Positions 7,697-59,027 of a stretch of 64,000 nt of DNA are shown in pieces; positions within the stretch are counted from its first letter, which is position 1; every line of letters begins with the position of its first letter. The stretch comes from Candidatus Giovannonibacteria bacterium (lineage in GTDB: Bacteria; Patescibacteriota; Minisyncoccia; JACPKW01; UBA11713). A model generated the notes under the pieces. That model had not been told where the DNA came from, did no database searches, and saw nothing but the letters and a program-made list of their open reading frames with translations. The stretch is taken from assembly GCA_016186825.1 (NCBI GenBank), contig JACPKW010000005.1, positions 66,025-130,024 on the forward strand. Reading direction: 5' to 3'. The translations under genes and the position numbers were made by a program.

Positions 7697-9007
7697 TTAG
7701 AACTGATATTTTCGCGGAAAATAGAGCAAGTCTTTAGTAAGCAAAACTGGCATATCCGGAACTGTGCCCTTAATTTCCTTCGCCTGCTCAAGCGCGACAG
7801 TCCCAGGAGGCGGCCTTTCGGGTGTTAACTTACTCCCCAGTGGAATGTGGAGATTTTTTTCGATGATAACGCGGTCTAGTGTAGAGCCCGCTCCGACTTC
7901 GACGCCGTCAAACAGAACCGAGTTTGTGATAAAGCTGCCGGCACCGATTATACATCTGCTAATGACGCTGTGGCTTACAAAAATATTATCCTGAAAGATC
8001 GACCCGAATGAGAGCACCTCGTTGCAGGTAATATTATCTGCTTTCGTCGGAAATGCGGCGGCTTGCGTTACGCCGAAAAGCGGCCACTTTTCGGAAAACA
8101 TATCAAAGATGGGGTTTCGGCGGCACACTTCCATCTGCGCCGCATACCAGCTTTCAAGCGTTCCGACGTCCCGCCAATATCCGCGGCCTTGCGCTGTCAT
8201 ACCGGGATACTCGTTATCCACAAGGTTATAGCCAATCAGACTTTTTTCATGATGTATCAGCCACTGTAAACCCGCACTGCTTAACTTTTGAGCGGGATCT
8301 TTCGCGCGCAGTTTCTCAAGGTAGCCAAGCATTCCAAAAAACTCTTCCGATCTGATGACATACATCGCCAGATTAGCCAGGCAATAACCCGGCCGATCCG
8401 CGAGTTCCAATGGCTTCTCTGGTTTTTCTATGAGGTCGGCAACATTGCCATGTCTGTCCAATTCTAATACGCCAAAGTTATTTTTTGCCTCATTAACAGG
8501 TACAGCTTTATAAACCAGGAGAGCGCACGCTCCAGATTGAAATAGTTTTAACACCATCTGGCGATAATCACACTTAACTATTTGATCGCCCATCGCAATG
8601 ATGACGACGGCAGGGTTTTCATCTTCAAAGTATCGGCGCAATTGCAAGAGCGAATCTGCATCACTCTGGAAAAACCCGTTGGCTTCATGCAATGGCGGCG
8701 TCAAGTGACGAATAAAGTGACCGCGCTGGTGCCCGAGCGTTCCGCCGAACGCATCGCCCACATGTCTCATCAAAGATTGCGGGCGGTACTGGACTGCCAA
8801 AAAAATCCTGGAGCACCATGAATTGATAAGATTTGAGAGCTGAAAATCGACGAGGCGATATTTGGCGCCGAAAAAAAGCGCTGGTTTCGCGCGCTCGCTC
8901 GTCAACGGCCATAATCTTGTCCCAGATCCTCCAGCCAGAACAACTCCCAGAACATTTTCCATATTGACAACAAGAAAATCTTCCTTATTCATAATGTTTT
9001 GCGTCAT
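7697..9007 (-). CDS. glgC: Glucose-1-phosphate adenylyltransferase (ADP-glucose pyrophosphorylase)
   Basis: LGVVLAGGSGTRLWPLTSERAKPAL nucleotidyltransferase motif. C-terminal left-handed beta-helix region. About 436 aa. Confidence 0.88.
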   Translation of the reverse strand: MTQNIMNKEDFLVVNMENVLGVVLAGGSGTRLWPLTSERAKPALFFGAKYRLVDFQLSNLINSWCSRIFLAVQYRPQSLMRHVGDAFGGTLGHQRGHFIRHLTPPLHEANGFFQSDADSLLQLRRYFEDENPAVVIIAMGDQIVKCDYRQMVLKLFQSGACALLVYKAVPVNEAKNNFGVLELDRHGNVADLIEKPEKPLELADRPGYCLANLAMYVIRSEEFFGMLGYLEKLRAKDPAQKLSSAGLQWLIHHEKSLIGYNLVDNEYPGMTAQGRGYWRDVGTLESWYAAQMEVCRRNPIFDMFSEKWPLFGVTQAAAFPTKADNITCNEVLSFGSIFQDNIFVSHSVISRCIIGAGSFITNSVLFDGVEVGAGSTLDRVIIEKNLHIPLGSKLTPERPPPGTVALEQAKEIKGTVPDMPVLLTKDLLYFPRKYQF

Positions 9008-9180
9008 TCTTTCCTCCTTCGCCTTGGATATGTTTTTAACGATCCCAGCCGTTTATATCTAATCCCATATTTATAACGCTTCACAGCAAAACAAGTTCAC
9101 GCTTAAAAAGCTTTTCATAAAATCAAAAGCAGTGAAGATTTCGTCAGAAAACATCTAAAAAAGCTGTTATAAAAGCGGCT

Positions 9181-13283: not shown

Positions 13284-13415
13284 CCCCGTTAGAAAATTCT
13301 TTTCTAACGGGGGTTCATTTCTCGCCAAAGCGTCCCGCCGTGGCGGGACGCGGAGCGAAGCCCAGCCCCGCTTGTAGCGGGGCTGGGCGACCTGCCTGCC
13401 GGCAAGGCAGGGCGA
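13284..13415. repeat. Cluster of four strong GC-rich hairpins, including the CCTGCCTGCCGGCAAGGCAGG member of a dispersed palindromic repeat family
   Basis: Perfect 13-bp hairpin CCCCGTTAGAAAA/TTTTCTAACGGGG. Also CGTCCCGCC-GTG-GCGGGACG, CCCAGCCCCGC-TTGTA-GCGGGGCTGGG and CCTGCCTGCCGGCAAGGCAGG. The last of these recurs at 56900-57030. Confidence 0.55.
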
Positions 13416-34025: not shown

Positions 34026-36452
34026 ATGAAGAGGATCGTGAATCTCGATAGAATTACTTCAGAGCAACTTCAAATAAAAAGCCGGAGCGCTTACGCCGGG
34101 CTGATCATTCTGATTGCCGTCGCGTATTTTTTAGCTGGAAAATTGGGTCTCCGTTCCGCATTAATTAACCCGCATACGAGCGCGCTCTGGCCTGTTTCTG
34201 GTATCGCGCTCTCGACCGTTTTGCTTCTGGGCTACAAAGTTCTGCCGGGAATTTTTTTAGGAGCGTTTTTTGTTTTCCTCACAACATCAGGAAGTGTTTA
34301 CGCTTCTTTCGCAATCGCTGTAGGAAACACCCTCGAAATTCTCGTTGCTTCTTTTCTCGCCAATAAATACGGCGGAGGAAAATTCGCATTCACAAAGAGA
34401 AATAATATTTTTGTCTTCGCCTCACTCGCGGGCGCGTTGAGCCCCATCATCGGCGCAACTATTGGCACTGTAACGCTTGTGTCTTTCGGCTTCACCGATC
34501 TAGCGAATTTTTGGGTGATTTGGGTTACATGGTGGGTCGGAACTATGGGTGGCATCTTGGTCGTAAGTCCTCTTATACTTCTTTGGACTACCTGCGGCCG
34601 AGTTAAATGGACCTACGAAGATGCTATAAAAGACATCCTGGTTCTGATTCTAACTTTTTTTATCTCGTTTGGCATTTTCGGCGGATATTTCAACTTAAGC
34701 TCTTACAACTACCCTCTTTCATATGTATTATTTCCAATTTTGATCTTGGCGGCTTTCAAATCCGGACGACGTGTAACGATAACTGCGAATGTAATAGTGT
34801 CTACTATCGCGATTTGGGGGACACTGCAGGGCTACGGCCCTTTTGGAAGCATTACCTATAACTATTCGGTTATTCTGCTTGCAGGATATTTAGCGACAAT
34901 CACGCTCACCTCAACCGCAGTCGCGGCAGAAGTTTCCACCCGCCATAGGCATGAAAAACGCTTCCAGGCATTGATTGAGAACAGTTTCGATGCCATGCTC
35001 TTAGTTGAGCGTAAGAAAATAAAATATGCGAGCCCTTCATCTTTAAATGTCCTTGGACACAAATCTGATAAACTAATAGACACAGATCTAATCGAGATAA
35101 TCCACGAAAGCGACCGAGAACTTGTTTTGAAAGTATTAGAGGATATCGAGAAAAATCATACAGACGACTTCGAAGTTTTTGAAGCGCGGGTAGAAAAACC
35201 CAACGGTTCCTGGATCTGGACCGAAGCAACAGCTGCAAACCTGATAAAGGATCCCTTCGTGCGCTCAGTTGTTATAAACTTTCACGATATAACCGATGAA
35301 AAAGAAGCAAAAGAAATTTTTCTGAAATATTACGACGCGCTGGTCCAAGAAAAAGCAAAAATTGAAACTTTGCTTGCAAGCATAGGAGATATAATAGTTG
35401 CGACCGACCACAGCGGAAAAATCATTCTCGCAAACAAGGCATTTGAAGAACAAATGGGTTGGAAAGTTGAAGAAGTCCTAAATGAGCAAATTCACGATGT
35501 TATTCCAATGGATTTAGTCGAAACTCCCGATGAAGAAATTTATGAGAACCTGCGGCCGCTGGAAAAGGCGTTAAGTTCTCAAAAAAAGTTTTCGGGTTCG
35601 TATTATATTTCGCGTAAAAACGGATCTAAATTTCCTGCGATTGTTACAGCTTCCCCCGTGATATTTGAAGGCAACCTGATCGGTGGTATAAAAGTTATTC
35701 ATGATGTCTCGCGGGAAAAAGAAATCGACCGCGCGAAAAGCGAATTCATCGCGCTTGCTTCCCATCAGCTTAGAACGCCCCTAACGATTGTAAGCTGGAG
35801 CGCAGAAATGGTTCTAAAAAATTTCAAAACTCTTGACTCTAGAAAGAAAAAAGAATATCTTCAAAAAATTTATGATGCGAACCAACGGATGATTCATCTT
35901 ACAGACGCGCTCCTGAATGTTTCAAGAATCGAAATGGGCACTTACATACTGGAGCCTGTCCCAACAAATATAGTAAAAATAGCAAAGACAGTGCTCGATG
36001 AAAGTTCGCGCGAGATTGAAACCAAAAAAATAAAAGTGGAGACTAGTTTTGCAAAAATGCCCCGTTTGAACGTGGATCCGAATCTCACGAGGATTATTTT
36101 TCAAAATTTAATTTCCAATGCCGCCAAATATACTCCGGCCAAAGGACGCATAAAAATTTCAGTTGAACTGAAAGAGGAAGAAGAGCAGGAGGTGCTAATT
36201 CGCGTTGAAGATACGGGCTACGGCATTCCATTAAACCAGCAGCCGATGATTTTAACGAAACTTTTCCGCGCAGATAACATCAAAGAAGTTGATACAAACG
36301 GGACCGGGCTCGGACTTTACATCGTTAAGTCCATTTTGGAGCGAATCGGCGGAAAAATATGGTTCGAATCAATGGAAAACAGAGGCAGTACATTTTATGT
36401 AACCATGCCGCTTTCTATGCCGGAGAAAAAAGGCACAAAAGCTTTGATTTGA
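34026..36452 (+). CDS. Sensor histidine kinase with an N-terminal polytopic (MASE1-like) membrane domain, PAS domains, HisKA and HATPase_c
   Basis: H-box FIALASHQLRTPL. N/G boxes NLISNAAKYT and GTGLGLYIVKSILE. Confidence 0.85.
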   Translation: MKRIVNLDRITSEQLQIKSRSAYAGLIILIAVAYFLAGKLGLRSALINPHTSALWPVSGIALSTVLLLGYKVLPGIFLGAFFVFLTTSGSVYASFAIAVGNTLEILVASFLANKYGGGKFAFTKRNNIFVFASLAGALSPIIGATIGTVTLVSFGFTDLANFWVIWVTWWVGTMGGILVVSPLILLWTTCGRVKWTYEDAIKDILVLILTFFISFGIFGGYFNLSSYNYPLSYVLFPILILAAFKSGRRVTITANVIVSTIAIWGTLQGYGPFGSITYNYSVILLAGYLATITLTSTAVAAEVSTRHRHEKRFQALIENSFDAMLLVERKKIKYASPSSLNVLGHKSDKLIDTDLIEIIHESDRELVLKVLEDIEKNHTDDFEVFEARVEKPNGSWIWTEATAANLIKDPFVRSVVINFHDITDEKEAKEIFLKYYDALVQEKAKIETLLASIGDIIVATDHSGKIILANKAFEEQMGWKVEEVLNEQIHDVIPMDLVETPDEEIYENLRPLEKALSSQKKFSGSYYISRKNGSKFPAIVTASPVIFEGNLIGGIKVIHDVSREKEIDRAKSEFIALASHQLRTPLTIVSWSAEMVLKNFKTLDSRKKKEYLQKIYDANQRMIHLTDALLNVSRIEMGTYILEPVPTNIVKIAKTVLDESSREIETKKIKVETSFAKMPRLNVDPNLTRIIFQNLISNAAKYTPAKGRIKISVELKEEEEQEVLIRVEDTGYGIPLNQQPMILTKLFRADNIKEVDTNGTGLGLYIVKSILERIGGKIWFESMENRGSTFYVTMPLSMPEKKGTKALI

Positions 36453-42660: not shown

Positions 42661-42682
42661 GGCGGAGGGGGCGAGATTCGAA
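42661..42682. repeat. Direct-repeat copy of the tRNA-Ser 3' end (GGCGGAGGGGGCGAGATTCGAA), 127 bp downstream of the gene
   Basis: Matches 42788-42808 at 21 of 22 positions. The copy encodes CCA; the gene does not. Confidence 0.7.
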
Positions 42683-42788
42683 TTTCCTCCTTCGGAAATT
42701 ACGGGGAAGTCCCCCGGACTTCCCTTCGAACTCGCCTTTCAACAATGATGCCAAATTTCAATATCAAAAGATATTAAATTTGTCATAG

Positions 42789-42875
42789 CGGAGGGGGCGA
42801 GATTCGAACTCGCGATGCGGTTTCCCGCATACTTGCTTTCCAAGCAAGCGCACTAGACCACTATGCGACCCCTCC
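42789..42875 (-). tRNA. tRNA-Ser(GGA), type II with long variable arm; CCA not encoded
   Basis: GGAGGGG-TC-GCAT-AGTGGTCTA-GTGC-G-CTTGC-TTGGAAA-GCAAG-TATGCGGGAAACCGCATC-GCGAG-TTCGAAT-CTCGC-CCCCTCC-G forms a full cloverleaf. Confidence 0.8.
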
Positions 42876-43124
42876 AGTATCCAGTAATTTTTTAAAGGCT
42901 TCCCCACCTTTATAGCTTTTTATTTGCTTTTCTCTAAGCCACGCACTTTTTTTATGTGAAAAATACTCTTTATAGATCAGTTTCCAAGGTCTGCCACTCC
43001 TCGTAGATTTATTGGCTCCAGAATTATGATGGTTTACACGATCAAAAATATTAGAAGTAAAACCTACATAATATTTTTTATTCAGTTGACTCTGCAAAAT
43101 ATAAACAGCAAACATATTGACCAC
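42861..43124 (-). CDS. GIY-YIG nuclease-superfamily protein (UPF0213/YhbQ-like, 87 aa)
   Basis: YILQSQLNKKYYVGFTSNIFDRVNHHNSG GIY-YIG motif. Bracketed by 14-bp direct repeats TATGCGACCCCTCC (42862-42875 and 43160-43173). Confidence 0.7.
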   Translation of the reverse strand: MVNMFAVYILQSQLNKKYYVGFTSNIFDRVNHHNSGANKSTRSGRPWKLIYKEYFSHKKSAWLREKQIKSYKGGEAFKKLLDTGGVA

Positions 43125-43221
43125 CCACCGCTTTCAGCGGGGTCCCGCCAAAGGCGGTGATATGCGACCCCTCCGGATAGCCTAAATAGTAGCAAATTAT
43201 TGCGTCGAGTAAAGTTTTTAT

Positions 43222-54345: not shown

Positions 54346-56067
54346 ATGCTCCCGTCGTGGGACCAAATTCGTTATACCGCCCGCCAAATGTCCAGAGGCG
54401 AAAGAATACTTTCTTTAATTCTGATCGCATCCGCTGTCATCGGTTTTTTAGGCACGGTTAGCATACTTAATGCTCGTTTTTCATTTCTCGCGCCTGCCAA
54501 AGGCGGAACGCTCCATGAGGGAATCATCGGAAACCCGCATTTTGTAAATCCGCTTTTGGCGATTTCAGATACAGATCGCGACTTAGTTTCGTTGGTTTTT
54601 TCAGGACTGATGCGCCCTGACGGCCAAGGGAATCTCATTCCCGACCTTGCCGAACGCTATGAAGTTTCAGAGGACAGACTTTCCTACACATTTTATTTAA
54701 AAAACGACGCTTTTTTTCACGATCAAAAGGAGCTCAAGGCGGATGATATTGTTTTTACGGTCGCGCTCGCAAAAAACCCAAATTTAAAAAGTCCACTAAG
54801 GGCAAGCTGGGAGGGAGTCGAAACAGAAAAGGTAAACGACCGCACAGTGCGTTTTTGGCTCAAGCGCCCCTACGCGCAGTTTCTTGAAAATACAACGCTT
54901 GGAATTTTGCCCGAGCACATCTGGAAAAGCATCGATCCGGAGCAAATTTCGCTCGCAAAGGCGAATCTTAGACCTGTCGGTTCGGGGCCCTATAAAGTTC
55001 AGAATGTCGCAATCAATGCAAACGATGTAATCGAATCTTACACGTTAGAATCTTTTTCAGATTTCATTTCTGGAAAGCCCTTCGTTCAAAAAATTGTAAC
55101 TCATTTCTATCCATCCGAAGATGAACTGCTGAAAGCTCACGACAAAGGCGCAATCGACAGCTTCGGCGCAATTTCTCCAAAGAATGTTTCGAAAATCAAA
55201 AAAAACAATGTGGTTTTAAAAAGCTTGACGCTTCCCAGGATTTTCGCGGTATTTTTTAATCAAAATGAAAAAAAGCTTTTTACCGACAAAGCAGTGAGAG
55301 AAGCGCTTAACCTTGCGGCTGATAAAGATAAAATCGTGAAGGAGGTGCTCGAGGGGCATGGCGTTGCAATTTCATCTCCCCTGCCGCCCGGAACACTTGG
55401 TGCGATTAGCGTGACCAGCACAGAATATAATATTGAAAAAGCCCGAGCGATACTGGAGAAAAACGGATGGATAAAAAATTCTGAAACGGGAATTTATGAA
55501 AAAATTGAAAAGAAAAAAGTAGTGGAAACGCTCTCATTCTCGCTTGCAACTTCGAATTGGCCGGATTTAATTAGAGCGGCCGATATTCTCCGCGCGAGCT
55601 GGGAGGAACTCGGCGCAAAAGTTGAAGTAAAAGTATTTGAAATCGGTGATCTGAATCAAAACGTAATAAGCCCAAGAAAATACGATGCGTTATTATTCGG
55701 CGAAGTAGTTGGACGTGATCCTGATCCTTTCGCTTTCTGGCACTCTTCCCAGAGAAACAACCCGGGTTTAAACATCGCTCTTTACACTTCCGCAAAAGTT
55801 GATAAAATCCTAGAGACGGCGCGCACTCTTTCTTCTGCCGAAGATCGGGAAAAAGAATACGCGGAATTCCAAGAAGAAATTCAGGCAGATCTGCCAGCGA
55901 TTTTCCTATATTCTCCCTATTATTTGTACGTAGTTCCCAACAACTTAAAAGGTTTTTCTACCGAACATATCACCGTTCCTTCGGAAAGATTTTCCGGAGT
56001 AAACAAGTGGCATTTTGACACGATTTATATCTGGAAAATTTTTAAGCGTTTTATTCCGAATTATTAA
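54346..56067 (+). CDS. ABC transporter substrate-binding protein, family 5 (peptide/nickel/oligosaccharide type)
   Basis: N-terminal TM/signal anchor. About 570 aa with SBP_bac_5-like organisation (FVNPLLAISDTDRDLVSLVFSGLMR). Confidence 0.7.
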   Translation: MLPSWDQIRYTARQMSRGERILSLILIASAVIGFLGTVSILNARFSFLAPAKGGTLHEGIIGNPHFVNPLLAISDTDRDLVSLVFSGLMRPDGQGNLIPDLAERYEVSEDRLSYTFYLKNDAFFHDQKELKADDIVFTVALAKNPNLKSPLRASWEGVETEKVNDRTVRFWLKRPYAQFLENTTLGILPEHIWKSIDPEQISLAKANLRPVGSGPYKVQNVAINANDVIESYTLESFSDFISGKPFVQKIVTHFYPSEDELLKAHDKGAIDSFGAISPKNVSKIKKNNVVLKSLTLPRIFAVFFNQNEKKLFTDKAVREALNLAADKDKIVKEVLEGHGVAISSPLPPGTLGAISVTSTEYNIEKARAILEKNGWIKNSETGIYEKIEKKKVVETLSFSLATSNWPDLIRAADILRASWEELGAKVEVKVFEIGDLNQNVISPRKYDALLFGEVVGRDPDPFAFWHSSQRNNPGLNIALYTSAKVDKILETARTLSSAEDREKEYAEFQEEIQADLPAIFLYSPYYLYVVPNNLKGFSTEHITVPSERFSGVNKWHFDTIYIWKIFKRFIPNY

Positions 56068-56083
56068 GATCGAAGAAACCAAA

Positions 56084-56872
56084 ATGAATCTTTTTTTGAA
56101 AACGGGGCTCGAACTCGAATACATAAACGGCGACATTGAGCTACCGGAGGACATATGCGTGCGCGATAAATGGGACCGCACTGTGGAAGCAATGAGCCCG
56201 GTATTATTCCTCTCGAACCCCGGAGACAAGCGCGCAATGTATCGGGTTTGGCGCGGTATCTACAAAAAAGAAGATGCTGAATTTTTTGATAATCTGAAAA
56301 TCAGCTACGACTTTACGGCCGTTTTCCCCGTAAAAATCAATAAAGAAATTGCAAAGACATTCGGGCATTATCATTCGCGCGACATGATGGGCGTTATGTA
56401 TCCTGAAATTCTGGAGGTCATATCCGGAAAAGTTTGGTGGATTTTGCAAAAACCCCGCCTCGATCCGAGCGAACTCGATGAAATCTATTTTGTGCAAATG
56501 GAGGCGGGAGAAAAAGTTATTATACCGGCGGGATACGGACACAATATTTCAAATCCCGCGGGCGAAGACCTAATTCTCGCAAATCTGCTCTGCACCGAGG
56601 ACAAACATGACTACAAAACTTACGAAAGTCTGCGGGGCGCAGGATATTATCTGATTGAAAGCGAAAACCAACAGGTAGAATTTAAAAAAAATACCTCCTA
56701 CAAATTCGTCCCTGAAATTATTAAATTGAAACCGAAAAATCCTCCGGGCCTGGGGCTCGATTTCAAAGAATCGCTTTATCAAATGGCCAAAAATCAAAAC
56801 TTGGAATTTCTTTCCAGGCCGCATAAATACGCCGCGCTTCTGACAATTGAAAATTGTTTTGAAAAAATCTAA
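56084..56872 (+). CDS. Cupin-type glucose-6-phosphate isomerase-like protein (archaeal cPGI-like)
   Basis: KTFGHYHS and IIPAGYGHNISNPAGEDL cupin metal-site motifs. The track ORF starts at 56015, but Met 56084 avoids overlap with the upstream gene. Confidence 0.5.
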   Translation: MNLFLKTGLELEYINGDIELPEDICVRDKWDRTVEAMSPVLFLSNPGDKRAMYRVWRGIYKKEDAEFFDNLKISYDFTAVFPVKINKEIAKTFGHYHSRDMMGVMYPEILEVISGKVWWILQKPRLDPSELDEIYFVQMEAGEKVIIPAGYGHNISNPAGEDLILANLLCTEDKHDYKTYESLRGAGYYLIESENQQVEFKKNTSYKFVPEIIKLKPKNPPGLGLDFKESLYQMAKNQNLEFLSRPHKYAALLTIENCFEKI

Positions 56873-56877
56873 GTATT

Positions 56878-57078
56878 GCTGGGCGAGTGGCGGAATCGGC
56901 AGACCTGCCTGCCGGCAGGCAGGCGCGCTGGTCCACCCTGTTAGAAATTTTAATAAATGAAATATTTATTCAGTCTGGTGCTGGGATGGCGGAATCGGCA
57001 GACCTGCCTGCCGGCAGGCAGGCGCGCTGGTCCACCCTGTTAGAAATTTTAATAAATGAAATATTTATTCAATCTGGT
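56878..57078. repeat. Two tandem ~100-nt direct repeats, each beginning with the first ~24 nt of tRNA-Leu (GCTGGGATGGCGGAATCGGCAGAC) followed by the GC palindrome CCTGCCTGCCGGCAGGCAGG and an AT-rich hairpin
   Basis: Units at 56878-56979 and 56980-57078 differ by a 3-nt indel and one substitution. The third repeat start is the real tRNA at 57079. Confidence 0.85.
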
Positions 57079-57162
57079 GCTGGGATGGCGGAATCGGCAG
57101 ACGCGCACGCTTCAGGAGCGTGTAGGAGAAATCCTGTGGGAGTTCAAATCTCCCTCCCAGCA
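57079..57162 (+). tRNA. tRNA-Leu(CAG), type II; CCA not encoded
   Basis: GCTGGGA-TG-GCG-GAATCGGCAGA-CGC-G-CACGC-TTCAGGA-GCGTG-TAGGAGAAATCCTGT-GGGAG-TTCAAAT-CTCCC-TCCCAGC-A. Discriminator is A73. Confidence 0.85.
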
Positions 57163-57275
57163 CAGGGTTTATCGATTTCTAGCGGGGCAAGGAAGCCAGT
57201 GGGAGCAATCTCGTGGAGGTTCAAATCCTCTCTCGCCCGCCTTTAAAAACTAATTATCAGCATTAATATAATAAA

Positions 57276-59027
57276 ATGACACCACAAAAAGAGCTGGTTC
57301 GACCGGTCGAAATTATCAGGCGCCGGCCGCAATATTTGGCAAAAAAGCCTCCAAAAATTGAGACGGGGGTTTTGAAATTCATCCCGCTCGGCGGCTGCGG
57401 AGAGGTTACCCGCAGCATGTACATCTATGAATATGGAGATGATATCGTAATTATCGACATGGGACTGCAGTTTCCTGAAGAAGACATGCCAGGCATAGAT
57501 TATTTGATCCCGAACATCGAATATCTTATTCCAAAAAAGAAAAATATCCGCGGAATTATTATTACCCATGGCCACTACGATCATATCGGCGCAATCCCCC
57601 ATCTTGTGGAACCGCTCGGCCATCCCCCCGTCTATACCATGCCTTTAACGCGCGGCATGATTTTGAAAAGACAGGAGGATTTCAAACATCTGGGAAAATT
57701 GAGCGTAGAAGTCATCCGGGAAGATTCCAAACTAAAATTCGGCTCCTTTGAAGTCGAATTCTTCCGGGTAAACCACAACATTCCTGATTCGATCGGTGTT
57801 ATCCTAAAAAGTCCTGCAGGGACAATCGTGCATACCGGCGACTGGAAATTCGATCATACTCCTGTGAACGAAAAGCCGATCGACGTGGAAAGATTAAAAG
57901 GAATCGGCGATAAAGGCGTGATGCTTTTAGTCTCCGACTCAACCGGCGCAAAAGACGCGGGACGGACAATTTCGGAATCTGAAATTCAAAAAAATCTTGA
58001 AGAAATATTCAAAAATGCGAAGGGGCGTATAATCTGCGCCACATTTTCTTCGCTTTTAACGCGCATTCAGCAACTGATCTGGCTTTCGGAAAAATACGGC
58101 AGAAAAGTCCTTGTGGAGGGCTATTCCATGAAATCAAATGTGGCAGTATCGCAGGAACTCGGCTATTTGAAAGTTAAGAGAGGAACATTCATTGGCCGCG
58201 AAGAGTTCGAGACCTTGCCGGACGAACAAGTTACCATAATCTGCACGGGCGCGCAGGGCGAAGACCACGCCGTTATGATGCGGATTGCAAACAGCGAACA
58301 TAAGTTTTTGTCGCTTAAGGGAAGCGACTCGGTAGTGTTCTCTTCTTCGGTCGTGCCTGGAAACGAAGCCTCGGTCCAGCGCTTAAAAGATCTTCTTTAC
58401 AAAAAGGCCGGAAAAATTTATCACTCCGAGTCCATGGATATTCATGCTTCTGGGCACGCAAAGAGCGAAGATATAAAAGATATGATCCGGCTGATCCGGC
58501 CGCGTTATTTTATTCCGATGCACGGAAATTATTTCATGCTCCGGATCCACGCGGAGCTCGCGATAGAAGCGGGAGTGAAAGGCGAACATGTTGCGATCGC
58601 GGAAGACGGCGAAATAATTGAGATGAATTCAAATCAATTCAGAAAATCAAAAGAAAAAGCGCCTACAAGTTATGTAATGGTGGACGGCCTTGGTGTAGGC
58701 GATATTAAAGAAGTCGTGCTTCGCGACAGGCAGATGTTATCGGAAGACGGCATCTTTGTGATTATTGCCGTTGTTGACTCGCAAAGCGGGAAAATTAAGG
58801 GCTCGCCCGATATCATCTCGCGCGGCTTTGTTTATCTGAAAGAATCCAGAGAGCTTCTGGCTTCAGCGCGGCATTTGGTCAAAAAAGTTACGGAAGAAAC
58901 CACAAGCCAAATGCACCCGATCAACTGGGCGTTTTTGCGGGACGAAATCAGGGAGGAACTAGGCAAATTCTTGTTCAGAAAGACCAAACGCCGCCCAATG
59001 GTCCTTCCAGTTATAATCGAGATTTAA
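57276..59027 (+). CDS. rnj: Ribonuclease J (metallo-beta-lactamase/beta-CASP)
   Basis: ITHGHYDHIGA motif, beta-CASP region, C-terminal domain. 583 aa. Confidence 0.9.
   Translation: MTPQKELVRPVEIIRRRPQYLAKKPPKIETGVLKFIPLGGCGEVTRSMYIYEYGDDIVIIDMGLQFPEEDMPGIDYLIPNIEYLIPKKKNIRGIIITHGHYDHIGAIPHLVEPLGHPPVYTMPLTRGMILKRQEDFKHLGKLSVEVIREDSKLKFGSFEVEFFRVNHNIPDSIGVILKSPAGTIVHTGDWKFDHTPVNEKPIDVERLKGIGDKGVMLLVSDSTGAKDAGRTISESEIQKNLEEIFKNAKGRIICATFSSLLTRIQQLIWLSEKYGRKVLVEGYSMKSNVAVSQELGYLKVKRGTFIGREEFETLPDEQVTIICTGAQGEDHAVMMRIANSEHKFLSLKGSDSVVFSSSVVPGNEASVQRLKDLLYKKAGKIYHSESMDIHASGHAKSEDIKDMIRLIRPRYFIPMHGNYFMLRIHAELAIEAGVKGEHVAIAEDGEIIEMNSNQFRKSKEKAPTSYVMVDGLGVGDIKEVVLRDRQMLSEDGIFVIIAVVDSQSGKIKGSPDIISRGFVYLKESRELLASARHLVKKVTEETTSQMHPINWAFLRDEIREELGKFLFRKTKRRPMVLPVIIEI

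Follow-up and report, generated by a model that had tools for sequence, protein, structure and literature searches.

A tandemly repeated tRNA-Leu(CAG) locus in a Giovannonibacteria genome, a probable nuclease-less relic of a GIY-YIG/palindrome element

Why is an intact tRNA-Leu(CAG) gene preceded by two tandem units that each seem to begin a tRNA anew, and followed by a further tRNA-like piece? This arrangement lies in a 64,000-nt stretch of a Candidatus Giovannonibacteria genome (contig JACPKW010000005.1, positions 66,025 to 130,024 of the forward strand), hereafter the window, to whose positions all coordinates refer. The original prediction, made from the letters of the window, saw in it a scar of repeated partial duplication, by replication slippage or by abortive integration or excision at the tRNA, and, less likely, an array of small structured RNAs. 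Here we set out the architecture of the locus, its counterparts in other genomes and the history that would best account for it.

Two tRNA-Leu(CAG) genes at one locus

The locus comprises two tandem units (102 and 99 nt), an intact tRNA-Leu(CAG) gene downstream of them, which we term B, and a tRNA-like piece beyond it. Its parts are given below, with A denoting a second, predicted tRNA-Leu(CAG):

56840-56868, forward strand: sigma-70-like promoter, CTGACA-17-AAAAAT with TG, in the 3' end of the GPI gene and 9 nt before unit 1
56878-56979, forward strand: unit 1, 102 nt, made of GCT, the 5' part of A, the palindrome, the rest of A to anticodon base 35, and a spacer
56881-56903, forward strand: tRNA A positions 1-23, with acceptor 5' strand GGGCGAG, TG, and D-stem 5' strand plus D-loop GCGGAATCGGCAGA
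56904-56923, forward strand: palindrome copy 1, CCTGCCTGCCGGCAGGCAGG, between D-loop (..GA) and D-stem 3' strand (CGC)
56924-56935, forward strand: tRNA A continued, with D-stem 3' strand CGC, G26, anticodon-stem 5' strand CTGGT and loop CCA to base 35
56936-56979, forward strand: spacer 1, which includes the AT-rich hairpin at 56952-56970
56980-57078, forward strand: unit 2, a 99-nt chimera of B-type and A-type parts (B-type positions 1-23, 56980-57002; palindrome, 57003-57022; A-type 24-35, 57023-57034; spacer, 57035-57078)
57079-57162, forward strand: intact tRNA-Leu(CAG) B, acceptor GCTGGGA/TCCCAGC, discriminator A
57163-57191, forward strand: trailer of the inserted block, ending in CGGGGCAAG
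57192-57239, forward strand: tRNA A 3' half, positions 36-73, 48 nt, with GAA, GCCAG, variable arm TGGGAGCAATCTCGT, T-arm GGAGGTTCAAATCCTCT, acceptor 3' strand CTCGCCC and discriminator G
57243-57272, forward strand: promoter-like site of the RNase J gene (start 57276), TTAAAA-18-TATAAT

At 56888-57102 Tandem Repeats Finder places a repeat of period 99 nt, with 2.2 copies and 99% matches; the 92 aligned bases of the two units are identical save for one G/A difference at 56973, and their starts differ, being GCTGGGCGAG in unit 1 and GCTGGGA in unit 2. Each unit holds a perfect 20-nt palindrome after tRNA position 23 (56904-56923 and 57003-57022), which none of 100 shuffles matched, and an AT-rich hairpin, AATAAATGAAATATTTATT (56952-56970 and 57051-57069). 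ARAGORN and Rfam both call B as tRNA-Leu(CAG) at 57079-57162/57163 (53.7 bits, against a gathering score of 29 for RF00005), and its start is exactly that expected of a third unit. On all these points, the tandem units of about 100 nt, the GC palindrome and AT-rich hairpin in both, and the tRNA starting at 57079 in place of a third unit, the original prediction was right. The covariance-model scan that it proposed likewise separates B from the units, which as they stand are without any tRNA match in ARAGORN or Rfam; with E up to 10 over 56000-58000, Rfam gave no family match to the units, with group I intron (Intron_gpI) and T-box absent. Two incidental observations belong here: a 119-aa frame at 56887-57246 is an example of a spurious ORF, and a second copy of CGCGCTGGTCCA at 35336, within an 808-aa ORF, was dismissed as a chance match.

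The two units had both been read as restarting the 5' end of the intact tRNA: this holds for unit 2 (GCTGGGA), whereas the acceptor strand of unit 1, GGGCGAG, is that of another tRNA. This second tRNA-Leu(CAG), A, has its 5' half at the start of unit 1 and its 3' half in the downstream piece. GGGCGAG is fully complementary to CTCGCCC at 57232-57238 and CTGGT pairs with GCCAG at 57195-57199; with the palindrome removed, the rejoined halves (56881-56935 plus 57192-57239) give a full cloverleaf in ARAGORN, and, one loop base being missing from the 5' half, restoring a single T makes this a tRNA-Leu(CAG). The downstream piece, previously described as a T-arm-like fragment, is indeed tRNA-like and no tRNA by itself (57192-57239 gives only a sub-threshold Rfam match to tRNA-Sec, 16.4 bits, E = 7.3), though it is a complete 48-nt 3' half and not a T-arm only. 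A 256-nt block carrying B thus interrupts A between anticodon bases 35 and 36; before the duplication this block would have measured about 157 nt. In its anticodon region A lacks one base, and it has G73, against A73 in all aligned relatives; B is the predicted sole functional product of the array and the incoming allele. The first six bases of the block's trailer, CAGGGT, are complementary to ACCCTG of the spacers, and the 10-mer CGGGGCAAGG recurs at the equivalent junction in an Uhrbacteria locus (L048).

Comparison with orthologous loci, suggested with the original prediction, shows both that the fragments are absent from the nearest relatives and which gene was there before. In these relatives, L211 and L212, one uninterrupted tRNA-Leu(CAG) of the A type occupies the 89-nt gap between GPI (glucose-6-phosphate isomerase) and RNase J (76% identical), with gene order as in the window, and the palindrome/tRNA-fragment arrangement is wholly absent. 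The L211/L212 gene has the same acceptor strand GGGCGAG as A and the same TGGCGGAA after it, with the D-loop off by 1-2 bases, and the T-arm and acceptor of the A 3' half are likewise identical; B differs from both A and the L211/L212 gene at six of the seven acceptor 5' strand positions, and in the T-stem too. The comparison shows A to be the resident gene of this position, with B as its imported replacement. The locus is flanked by UvrC, SecG, SBP_bac_5 and GPI on one side and by RNase J, a class I aminoacyl-tRNA synthetase, PGM and YchF on the other; the five nearest of these neighbours (SBP_bac_5, GPI, RNase J, synthetase, PGM) stand in the same order in L211, and L212 shares the SBP_bac_5, GPI, RNase J, synthetase order. 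At the Leu locus there is no integrase gene or island cargo, the flanks being syntenic housekeeping genes.

The palindrome and its nuclease partner in other genomes

The palindrome had been taken for a local divergence of the units; it turns out to be a conserved 20-nt module that many unrelated contigs of two phyla carry at one and the same position of the tRNA. A metagenome scan, whose search pattern imposed GA/CG flanks, yielded at least 133 sites in at least 120 loci. At least 52 metagenome sites lie in a tRNA-Leu D-arm at the window's insertion point (the same point in L011, L048 and L215; L219 has TA and not GA before the palindrome), and at least 29 D-arm sites are followed 11-49 nt downstream by a GIY-YIG ORF of about 80 aa and then by an intact tRNA-Leu. 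Among the matches listed, all 31 loci with a downstream intact tRNA have a tRNA-Leu there, with the palindrome after nucleotide 22-24, and in most of them positions 1-23 are the same in the fragment as in the intact tRNA. The marked fragment also recurs in tandem arrays, with the ORF (L177, L219) and without it (L129, L202).

Two loci, L011 and L201, share the GPI-tRNA-Leu neighbourhood with the window (L011 also the RNase J gene) and have the layout 5' fragment, palindrome, 80-aa GIY-YIG ORF and intact tRNA, the ORF of L011 scoring 62.1 bits with Pfam PF01541. At this shared neighbourhood there is a presence/absence polymorphism, L211 and L212 being empty and L011 and L201 occupied, and it is on this basis that the ~80-aa proteins are taken as putative homing enzymes; they comprise the catalytic domain only, and the NCBIfam model for group I intron endonucleases matches them below its cut-off. 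The window itself holds a nuclease-bearing instance of the layout, at tRNA-Ser(GGA), with these parts:

42661-43174, reverse strand: the whole instance
43161-43174, reverse strand: 14-nt tRNA-Ser 5' fragment
43124-43158, reverse strand: two GC hairpins, differing in sequence from the Leu palindrome
42861-43124, reverse strand: 87-aa GIY-YIG ORF (PF01541, 58.9 bits against a cut-off of 22.6)
42788-42875, reverse strand: intact tRNA-Ser
42661-42736, reverse strand: tRNA-Ser 3' fragment with two hairpin inserts in the T-loop

In a six-frame HMM search the only GIY-YIG ORF of the window is this one, at 42.9 kb, with none in 56878-57276, and the Leu locus is therefore placed as a nuclease-less derivative like L048, L129 and L202; of these, L048 has the same nuclease-less layout as the window, with tandem 3' halves. 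The spacer found where the layout usually has the GIY-YIG gene is 44 nt long. Its best local match, a weak one that 2 of 200 shuffles equal, is to the end of the L120 nuclease ORF, and the spacer may be what is left of the 3' end of a GIY-YIG ORF that has since disappeared.

A second sample approached the association from the protein side: four independent contigs were picked by nuclease protein homology alone, and derive from Parcubacteria, Patescibacteria, Sphingobacteriales and the isolate Antarcticibacterium arcticum (phyla Patescibacteria and Bacteroidota). All four nuclease genes adjoin tRNA-Leu(CAA) with the exact palindrome in a redundant tRNA-Leu piece, the 20-mer being identical while the proteins are only 60-70% identical. 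This GIY-YIG subfamily numbers 396 members at E <= 1e-8. It is probable, in our judgement, that there exists an element consisting of a small stand-alone GIY-YIG nuclease gene and the 20-nt palindrome, with tRNA-Leu genes as its target. Within it we favour the palindrome being a functional part, either interrupting a direct repeat that would otherwise allow deletion of the nuclease gene or serving as a putative nuclease binding site, over chance colonisation. The palindrome alone cannot give immunity from cleavage, since the intact tRNA keeps the very sequence that is interrupted in the fragment. A viral origin was dismissed: scans of viral contigs gave no match for the palindrome in D-arm context, for the 5' end of B or for the nuclease protein.

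The most serious competitor is that the palindrome is an independent REP-like hairpin element, entering at the junctions of stems and loops and settling in dispensable DNA, the GIY-YIG link being a by-product and the tRNA duplication and replacement a separate matter. Depending on the filter, 75-81 of the 133 listed sites fall outside tRNA-Leu D-arms, and most of these, among the matches listed, have no GIY-YIG within 1.5 kb; 16 listed sites lie inside long ORFs and are mostly read as D-LPAGRQ-A. Fragments of tRNAs also hold GC hairpins of other sequence (CCCGCC..GGCGGG and others), and the window has a hairpin cluster at 13331-13411. At the sites outside tRNAs there is neither a target consensus beyond the imposed GA/CG nor flank complementarity. 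What makes this explanation improbable is, first, the identical 20-mer beside all four protein-chosen nuclease genes, in two phyla and with proteins 60-70% identical, and, second, the fixed position after nucleotide 22-24, a regularity that neutral colonisation would not be expected to produce.

Proposed history of the locus and its competitors

We consider it likely that the Leu locus is a nuclease-less, tandemly duplicated relic of such a tRNA-targeting GIY-YIG/palindrome selfish element. Its history would start from what the locus itself displays: the resident A, between GPI and RNase J, was split at 35/36 by a block with a working tRNA, B, and the now redundant 5' half of A bears the signature palindrome at the D-loop/D-stem junction. 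The nuclease ORF between the marked fragment and the intact tRNA would then have been lost, leaving the 44-nt spacer. Unequal crossover or slippage in a 16-nt D-arm sequence common to A and B would, to judge from the structure, have added unit 2, whose B/A composition is as expected from unequal crossover within the shared TGGCGGAATCGGCAGA; by analogy with experiments on phage SegB, this exchange may be nuclease-stimulated. Finally, the old tRNA promoter would probably still drive transcription of the array, with a 201-nt leader and the A 3' half as trailer, and RNase P and 3' processing would then free B. The promoter at 56840-56868 likely drives the whole array, and a -10 box likewise lies just upstream of the 5' fragment in other palindrome/GIY-YIG loci. 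No promoter was called inside either unit, although the -10 region is plainly repeated in the L129 and L202 arrays. A scan for intrinsic terminators did not call the palindrome, after which comes CGCGCTGG.

Several points count against the relic model. The Leu locus has no nuclease ORF and at best a weak trace of one; the ~80-aa proteins are only putative homing enzymes; the palindrome does not by itself protect the intact tRNA; and the many palindrome sites outside tRNAs mostly have no nuclease nearby. The model moreover accounts neither for the GCT before GGGCGAG nor for the entry of the block into the anticodon loop. A variant in which an element with the palindrome as its left end and tRNA positions 1-23 as its right end is inserted at 23|24 was dismissed for the window only, because CTGGT pairs with A's GCCAG and B has its own 3' acceptor strand; the palindrome therefore lies inside a contiguous A. 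The appeal of that variant is that it would explain the fixed position, and arrays as repeated re-insertion.

A bolder extension of the relic model, which we regard as possible though on balance doubtful, is that nuclease and invariant palindrome form one two-component selfish system across phyla. Genes for tRNA-Leu would be its targets, as would those for tRNA-Ser and tRNA-Met in combination with other hairpins, and by providing or duplicating the tRNA the system would let the host survive; the palindrome would be its own cis-site, for nuclease binding or cleavage, or a deletion-blocking device, and would also move in trans to new sites, namely hairpin loops and, in frame, protein genes (LPAGRQ).

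Could the locus instead make a functional RNA, with the leaders or a rejoined A acting as processing scaffold, stabiliser, attenuator or split tRNA for the tRNA-Leu/RNase J transcripts? The predicted fold of 56878-57245 pairs the A acceptor strands around a nested B cloverleaf (z-score -7), hairpins of different sequence fill the same D-arm site in different loci, and a promoter lies upstream of the units. That fold, however, follows trivially from the shared ancestry of the sequences; A carries its one-base deletion in the anticodon region and G73 where all aligned relatives have A73; one plain gene suffices in the nearest relatives; the palindrome displays identity and not covariation; and no Rfam family matches at E up to 10. 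Bacteria are not known to have a tRNA splicing endonuclease. We hold a functional RNA to be very unlikely, and the array of small structured RNAs entertained at the outset is as unlikely on the same grounds: the degenerate A, the identical, non-covarying palindrome and the single plain gene of the nearest relatives. The architecture does recur in distant genomes, as conservation of a functional RNA would have it, albeit as an identical mobile module and without compensatory changes.

Integrases that target tRNA genes classically leave the gene broken within the anticodon loop and its 3' half displaced, and short 3'-end duplications of this kind occur in L026, L075 and L078; a scar of a tyrosine-integrase island in the tRNA-Leu anticodon loop, the island having later been lost, is nevertheless highly improbable, given the want of any integrase or island between syntenic housekeeping flanks, an insert that carries a whole foreign tRNA and not a matching 3' part, and 5' fragments, palindrome and GIY-YIG association that would all be left unaccounted for. 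The partial-duplication scar of the original prediction is accordingly retained as regards slippage and a mobile-element event at the tRNA, and given up as regards integrase or island; that two tRNA-Leu(CAG) genes are involved had been missed.

Equally remote is a purely local slippage accident or an assembly artefact, suggested by units that are 99% identical and short-read assemblies that break there, as slippage of one gene could not produce the A/B heterology and the A-type 3' half, and many other assemblies, that of an isolate among them, show the architecture. The junctions from GPI to unit 1 and from unit to tRNA are real, since independent Logan assemblies from six sequencing runs reproduce both types, while themselves breaking within the repeat (the source samples are those of runs SRR12113385 to SRR12113428); the artefact that the original prediction had allowed for is thereby set aside for the junctions, the unit copy number of two being that of the source assembly alone.

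Known systems and biological meaning

The closest published analogue is phage SegB, the free-standing GIY-YIG homing endonuclease of the T4/T6 tRNA gene cluster, which drives tandem amplification via microhomology with the tRNA 5' region (PMC13096335). The two share a GIY-YIG gene beside tRNA genes and a statistical association with tRNAs. The SegB protein, from a phage, is larger and carries a DNA-binding part, whereas the element here encodes about 80 aa, a catalytic domain only, is chromosomal in Patescibacteria and Bacteroidota, and, unlike SegB, has a partial copy of a tRNA on one side and a complete copy of that tRNA on the other, together with a conserved 20-nt palindrome. Integrase islands share with the Leu locus the tRNA target, the anticodon-loop breakpoint, the displaced fragment and a function restored by incoming sequence, but here there is no integrase or island, a whole tRNA is incoming, and 5' as well as 3' fragments are duplicated. 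REP/BIME sequences, Rickettsia palindromic elements and fungal mitochondrial GC clusters are likewise short GC-rich palindromes of AT-rich compact genomes, found within RNA genes and in frame in protein genes; in contrast to these, the palindrome here is only 20 nt long, identical across phyla, fixed in its point at tRNA stem-loop junctions and putatively coupled to a GIY-YIG gene, not to a tyrosine transposase. Archaeal split and intron-containing tRNA genes also have 5' and 3' halves that are apart in DNA and able to pair, whereas this is a bacterium, with degenerate halves (palindrome, deletion, G73) and a complete tRNA of the same anticodon between them. Synthetic cleave-and-rescue drives couple a nuclease gene to a substitute for an essential gene and destroy the resident copy: this is a conceptual analogue only, cleavage being putative here and the fragment and intact tRNA being identical over 1-23 in most listed loci. 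In the full-text literature, coverage of which is incomplete so that absence is no proof, the tRNA/GIY-YIG/palindrome arrangement was not found described; a paper on rRNA gene insertions in these bacteria mentions GIY-YIG proteins and not tRNAs.

If the relic model is true, a minimal nuclease element would routinely invade and replace essential tRNA genes, both in Patescibacteria, whose genomes are very small, and in Bacteroidota; its signature is a tRNA fragment with one specific 20-nt palindrome. This would account for frequent assembly breaks at tRNA-Leu genes in these genomes and for spurious ORFs such as the 119-aa frame at 56887-57246, and would provide a marker for the horizontal replacement of tRNA alleles; a sequenced isolate, Antarcticibacterium arcticum (genome CP042476), bears the same module. 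Bacterial chromosomes would then join phages in the newly described link that ties GIY-YIG nucleases to tRNA genes and tandem amplification. With its in-frame copies in protein genes, the palindrome would supply a second case after the Rickettsia palindromic elements. Should the two-component reading also hold, the system would parallel the REP/RAYT pairing, with a nuclease as its driver, and would act on essential tRNA genes as a natural drive of a cleave-and-rescue-like type.

The split and the intact tRNA-Leu(CAG)

The source organism is Candidatus Giovannonibacteria (Patescibacteria), and the RNase J protein of the window is 100% identical to an NCBI protein listed under that organism name. 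The gap between this gene and that for the cupin-type glucose-6-phosphate isomerase (GPI) is laid out as follows:

56840-56868: promoter-like site (promoter scan) within the GPI 3' end, upstream of the tRNA fragment of unit 1
56872: GPI stop codon
56878-56979: unit 1 of the tandem repeat
56980-57078: unit 2 of the tandem repeat
57079-57162: intact tRNA-Leu(CAG), here tRNA B
57192-57239: tRNA-like piece
57276: RNase J gene start

In a pairwise comparison the two units share 92 bases that are identical save for one, and each contains the perfect palindrome CCTGCCTGCCGGCAGGCAGG. The array of two units, intact tRNA and downstream piece, described in the original prediction, is real: both types of outer junction are reproduced in Logan assemblies from six runs, which break within the repeat, the unit copy number being that of the source assembly alone. 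Short-read contigs from several relatives and from the window organism (L213, L001-L010) likewise start or end within the tRNA-Leu D-arm or the palindrome; hence, the element is a recurrent source of assembly breaks in these genomes. A 119-aa open frame with a GTG start (56887-57246) extends from unit 1 through unit 2 and the tRNA into the 3' half. It results from the repeats and, if annotated, would be a spurious gene.

The tRNA part of unit 1 and the downstream piece are the two halves of a second tRNA. Unit 1 begins GCT-GGGCGAG-TG-GCGGAATCGGCAGA and B begins GCTGGGA-TG-GCGGAATCGGCAGA; the GGGCGAG that follows GCT in unit 1 is exactly complementary to a CTCGCCC positioned after the T-arm of the downstream piece. 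When the palindrome is taken out, the D-stem closes (GCG...CGC) and is followed by G26 and then by CTGGT, which pairs with the GCCAG opening the downstream piece. Joined in this manner, 56881-56935 (minus the palindrome) and 57192-57239 yield a full cloverleaf in ARAGORN and, with one loop T restored, a tRNA-Leu(CAG), which we term tRNA A. This fold places the split of A between anticodon bases 35 and 36. The block now inside A measures 256 nt (56936-57191) with unit 2 included; its length prior to the duplication would come to about 157 nt (44 nt of spacer, B, and 29 nt of trailer). Its entry into the anticodon loop left no target duplication. The 10-mer CGGGGCAAGG at the right-hand junction (57183-57192) is common to the window and L048, an Uhrbacteria locus, and L048 also shares the 11-mer CCCCGACACCA, located shortly before the 5' end of the tRNA, with the comparison locus L132.

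About three quarters of 80 Patescibacteria loci keep tRNA-Leu(CAG) next to RNase J, with the tRNA directly upstream on the same strand in about 60 of the 80 genomes (loci L011-L090 and the window). The two nearest relatives among those with DNA to compare, L211 and L212 (RNase J identity 76%), resemble the window in gene order: L211 has the same five neighbouring genes in the same order, and L212 shares four of them. In both, the 89-nt gap contains one tRNA-Leu(CAG) and no more, uninterrupted, with the acceptor GGGCGAG/CTCGCCC and the T-arm GGAGGTTCAAATCCTCT, both identical to those of A. Six of the seven acceptor 5'-strand positions, and the T-stem as well, differ between A and B, and A has one base deleted in its anticodon region and carries G73 versus A73 in all aligned relatives. 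By these comparisons, A is the resident gene and B the newcomer; the resident allele has been replaced.

Only 2 nt separate the tRNA from the start codon of RNase J in both L211 and L212; this short distance suggests co-transcription, with the mRNA 5' end freed by tRNA processing. Another Giovannonibacteria locus, L011, has between tRNA-Leu and RNase J a 239-aa ORF (1780-2499) with an ADP-ribosyltransferase domain (ART-PolyVal, E = 4e-8), which is absent from the window, L211 and L212.

The palindrome and its GIY-YIG companion

In L011, with the same gene neighbourhood, the palindrome sits in a 5' fragment of an old tRNA-Leu; next come an 80-aa stand-alone GIY-YIG ORF and then an intact tRNA. 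Among loci of one neighbourhood the nuclease gene is either present or absent. A metagenome scan with the palindrome and two flanking bases on each side matched at least 120 loci and at least 133 sites. Class-II tRNA D-arms hold at least 52 of the 133 listed sites and, among the matches listed, 29 of these have a GIY-YIG ORF 11-49 nt downstream. In the 31 listed loci with a matching intact tRNA downstream, this is always a tRNA-Leu (five anticodons), the palindrome comes after nucleotide 22-24 in every one, and fragment and intact gene are usually identical across positions 1-23. Promoter -10 boxes lie upstream of the tRNA fragment in loci of the family; the old promoter of the tRNA thus appears to serve the nuclease gene as well as the tRNA itself.

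The main rival reading takes the palindrome to be an independent REP-like element. Depending on the filter, 75 to 81 of the 133 listed sites lie outside tRNA-Leu D-arms, most without a nearby nuclease gene, and 16 of 75 listed non-tRNA sites fall in long ORFs, mostly read as D-LPAGRQ-A. As the metagenome sample was palindrome-selected, a second one was drawn by protein only, with the L011 nuclease as query: it has 396 homologues at E <= 1e-8 in Patescibacteria and Bacteroidota, 60-70% identical. All four independent contigs examined from this sample (L215, Parcubacteria; L219, Patescibacteria; L216/L217, Sphingobacteriales; L214, the isolate Antarcticibacterium arcticum) adjoin a tRNA-Leu(CAA) and have the exact 20-mer within a redundant tRNA piece. 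An invariant 20-mer beside a diverging protein is hard to explain by neutral colonisation. Its site varies among the four: the D-arm site, the 5' side of the D-loop, or the T-stem/T-loop junction of a 3' fragment where the nuclease gene is downstream of the tRNA. Loci L021, L125, L202 and L109 are likewise T-arm or downstream variants.

The in-frame copies resemble Rickettsia palindromic elements: a 24-nt stretch (the palindrome with GA and CG) is read in frame in long ORFs of metagenome loci such as L159, L198 and L107, and in a pseudouridine-synthase-like gene it immediately precedes RPGIVHRLDKDTSG. In the window, an intergenic cluster of three GC-rich hairpins (13331-13411), without an adjoining tRNA or nuclease gene, contains at 13391 the sequence CCTGCCTGCCGGCAAGGCAGG, which differs from the palindrome by one base.

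Tandem arrays and other hairpin-marked tRNA genes

Unit 2 consists of the first 23 nt of B, then the palindrome of A, A positions 24-35 and the spacer. TGGCGGAATCGGCAGA is common to the A fragment and B. With S as the segment between this shared D-arm sequence and B (palindrome, A positions 24-35 and 44-nt spacer), unequal exchange within TGGCGGAATCGGCAGA would turn A5'-S-B into A5'-S-B5'-S-B, the observed order; from this structure, we infer unequal exchange as the probable origin of unit 2. Tandem arrays of marked fragments also occur without the ORF in L129 and L202, and with it in L177 and L219. The mirror image of the window is seen in L048 (1920-2200): one palindrome-marked 5' fragment, next an intact tRNA-Leu(CAG) between the perfect inverted repeats CCCCGACACCAAT and ATTGGTGTCGGGG, and last two tandem 64-nt units, each of trailer and tRNA 3' half, in place of the two 5' units.

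A cassette of this kind that includes the nuclease gene, and whose hairpins differ in sequence from the Leu palindrome, occupies the tRNA-Ser(GGA) locus of the window (42661-43174, minus strand), in this order:

promoter-like AT-rich stretch
14-nt 5' fragment
two GC hairpins
87-aa GIY-YIG ORF, its stop codon inside the intact tRNA
intact tRNA-Ser
50 nt spacer
3' fragment with two T-loop hairpins

In the comparison locus L163 (minus strand, about 8300-9100), the genes that come after a tRNA-Met(CAT) are tandem GIY-YIG ORFs and full-length pseudo-tRNA-Met copies with three different hairpin inserts each (D-loop, before the T-stem, T-loop). Across these loci, the redundant tRNA pieces are marked by hairpins at stem-loop junctions.

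A functional-RNA arrangement is disfavoured: the nested fold predicted for it follows from the common ancestry of the sequences, A is degenerate, the nearest relatives have a plain single gene, and there is no Rfam match. An integrase scar is contradicted by the flanking-gene and synteny data, pure slippage by the differences between A and B, and an assembly artefact by the junctions in six runs.

Proposed mechanism

Free-standing GIY-YIG endonucleases at tRNA genes are known already, and a study of rRNA insertions in these bacteria noted GIY-YIG proteins, not tRNAs. No description of the tRNA/GIY-YIG/palindrome arrangement was found in the full-text literature searched: its chromosomal cross-phylum distribution, the nested or duplicated tRNA architecture and the invariant companion palindrome are unreported.

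The palindrome might break up a direct repeat through which the nuclease gene would otherwise be deleted, provide the nuclease with a binding site or operator, or form a protective RNA hairpin; as an intrinsic terminator it was rejected, not being called in the terminator scan. Among systems studied by experiment, phage SegB comes closest: this free-standing GIY-YIG endonuclease of phage tRNA clusters cuts tRNA-containing DNA and drives tandem amplification through microhomology of a tRNA 5' region with the 3' end of SegB itself (PMC13096335). In the systems reported here, the nuclease would start events by breaking tRNA genes, arrays would grow via exchange between duplicated tRNA segments, and the tRNA-Leu locus of the window may perhaps have lost its nuclease ORF.
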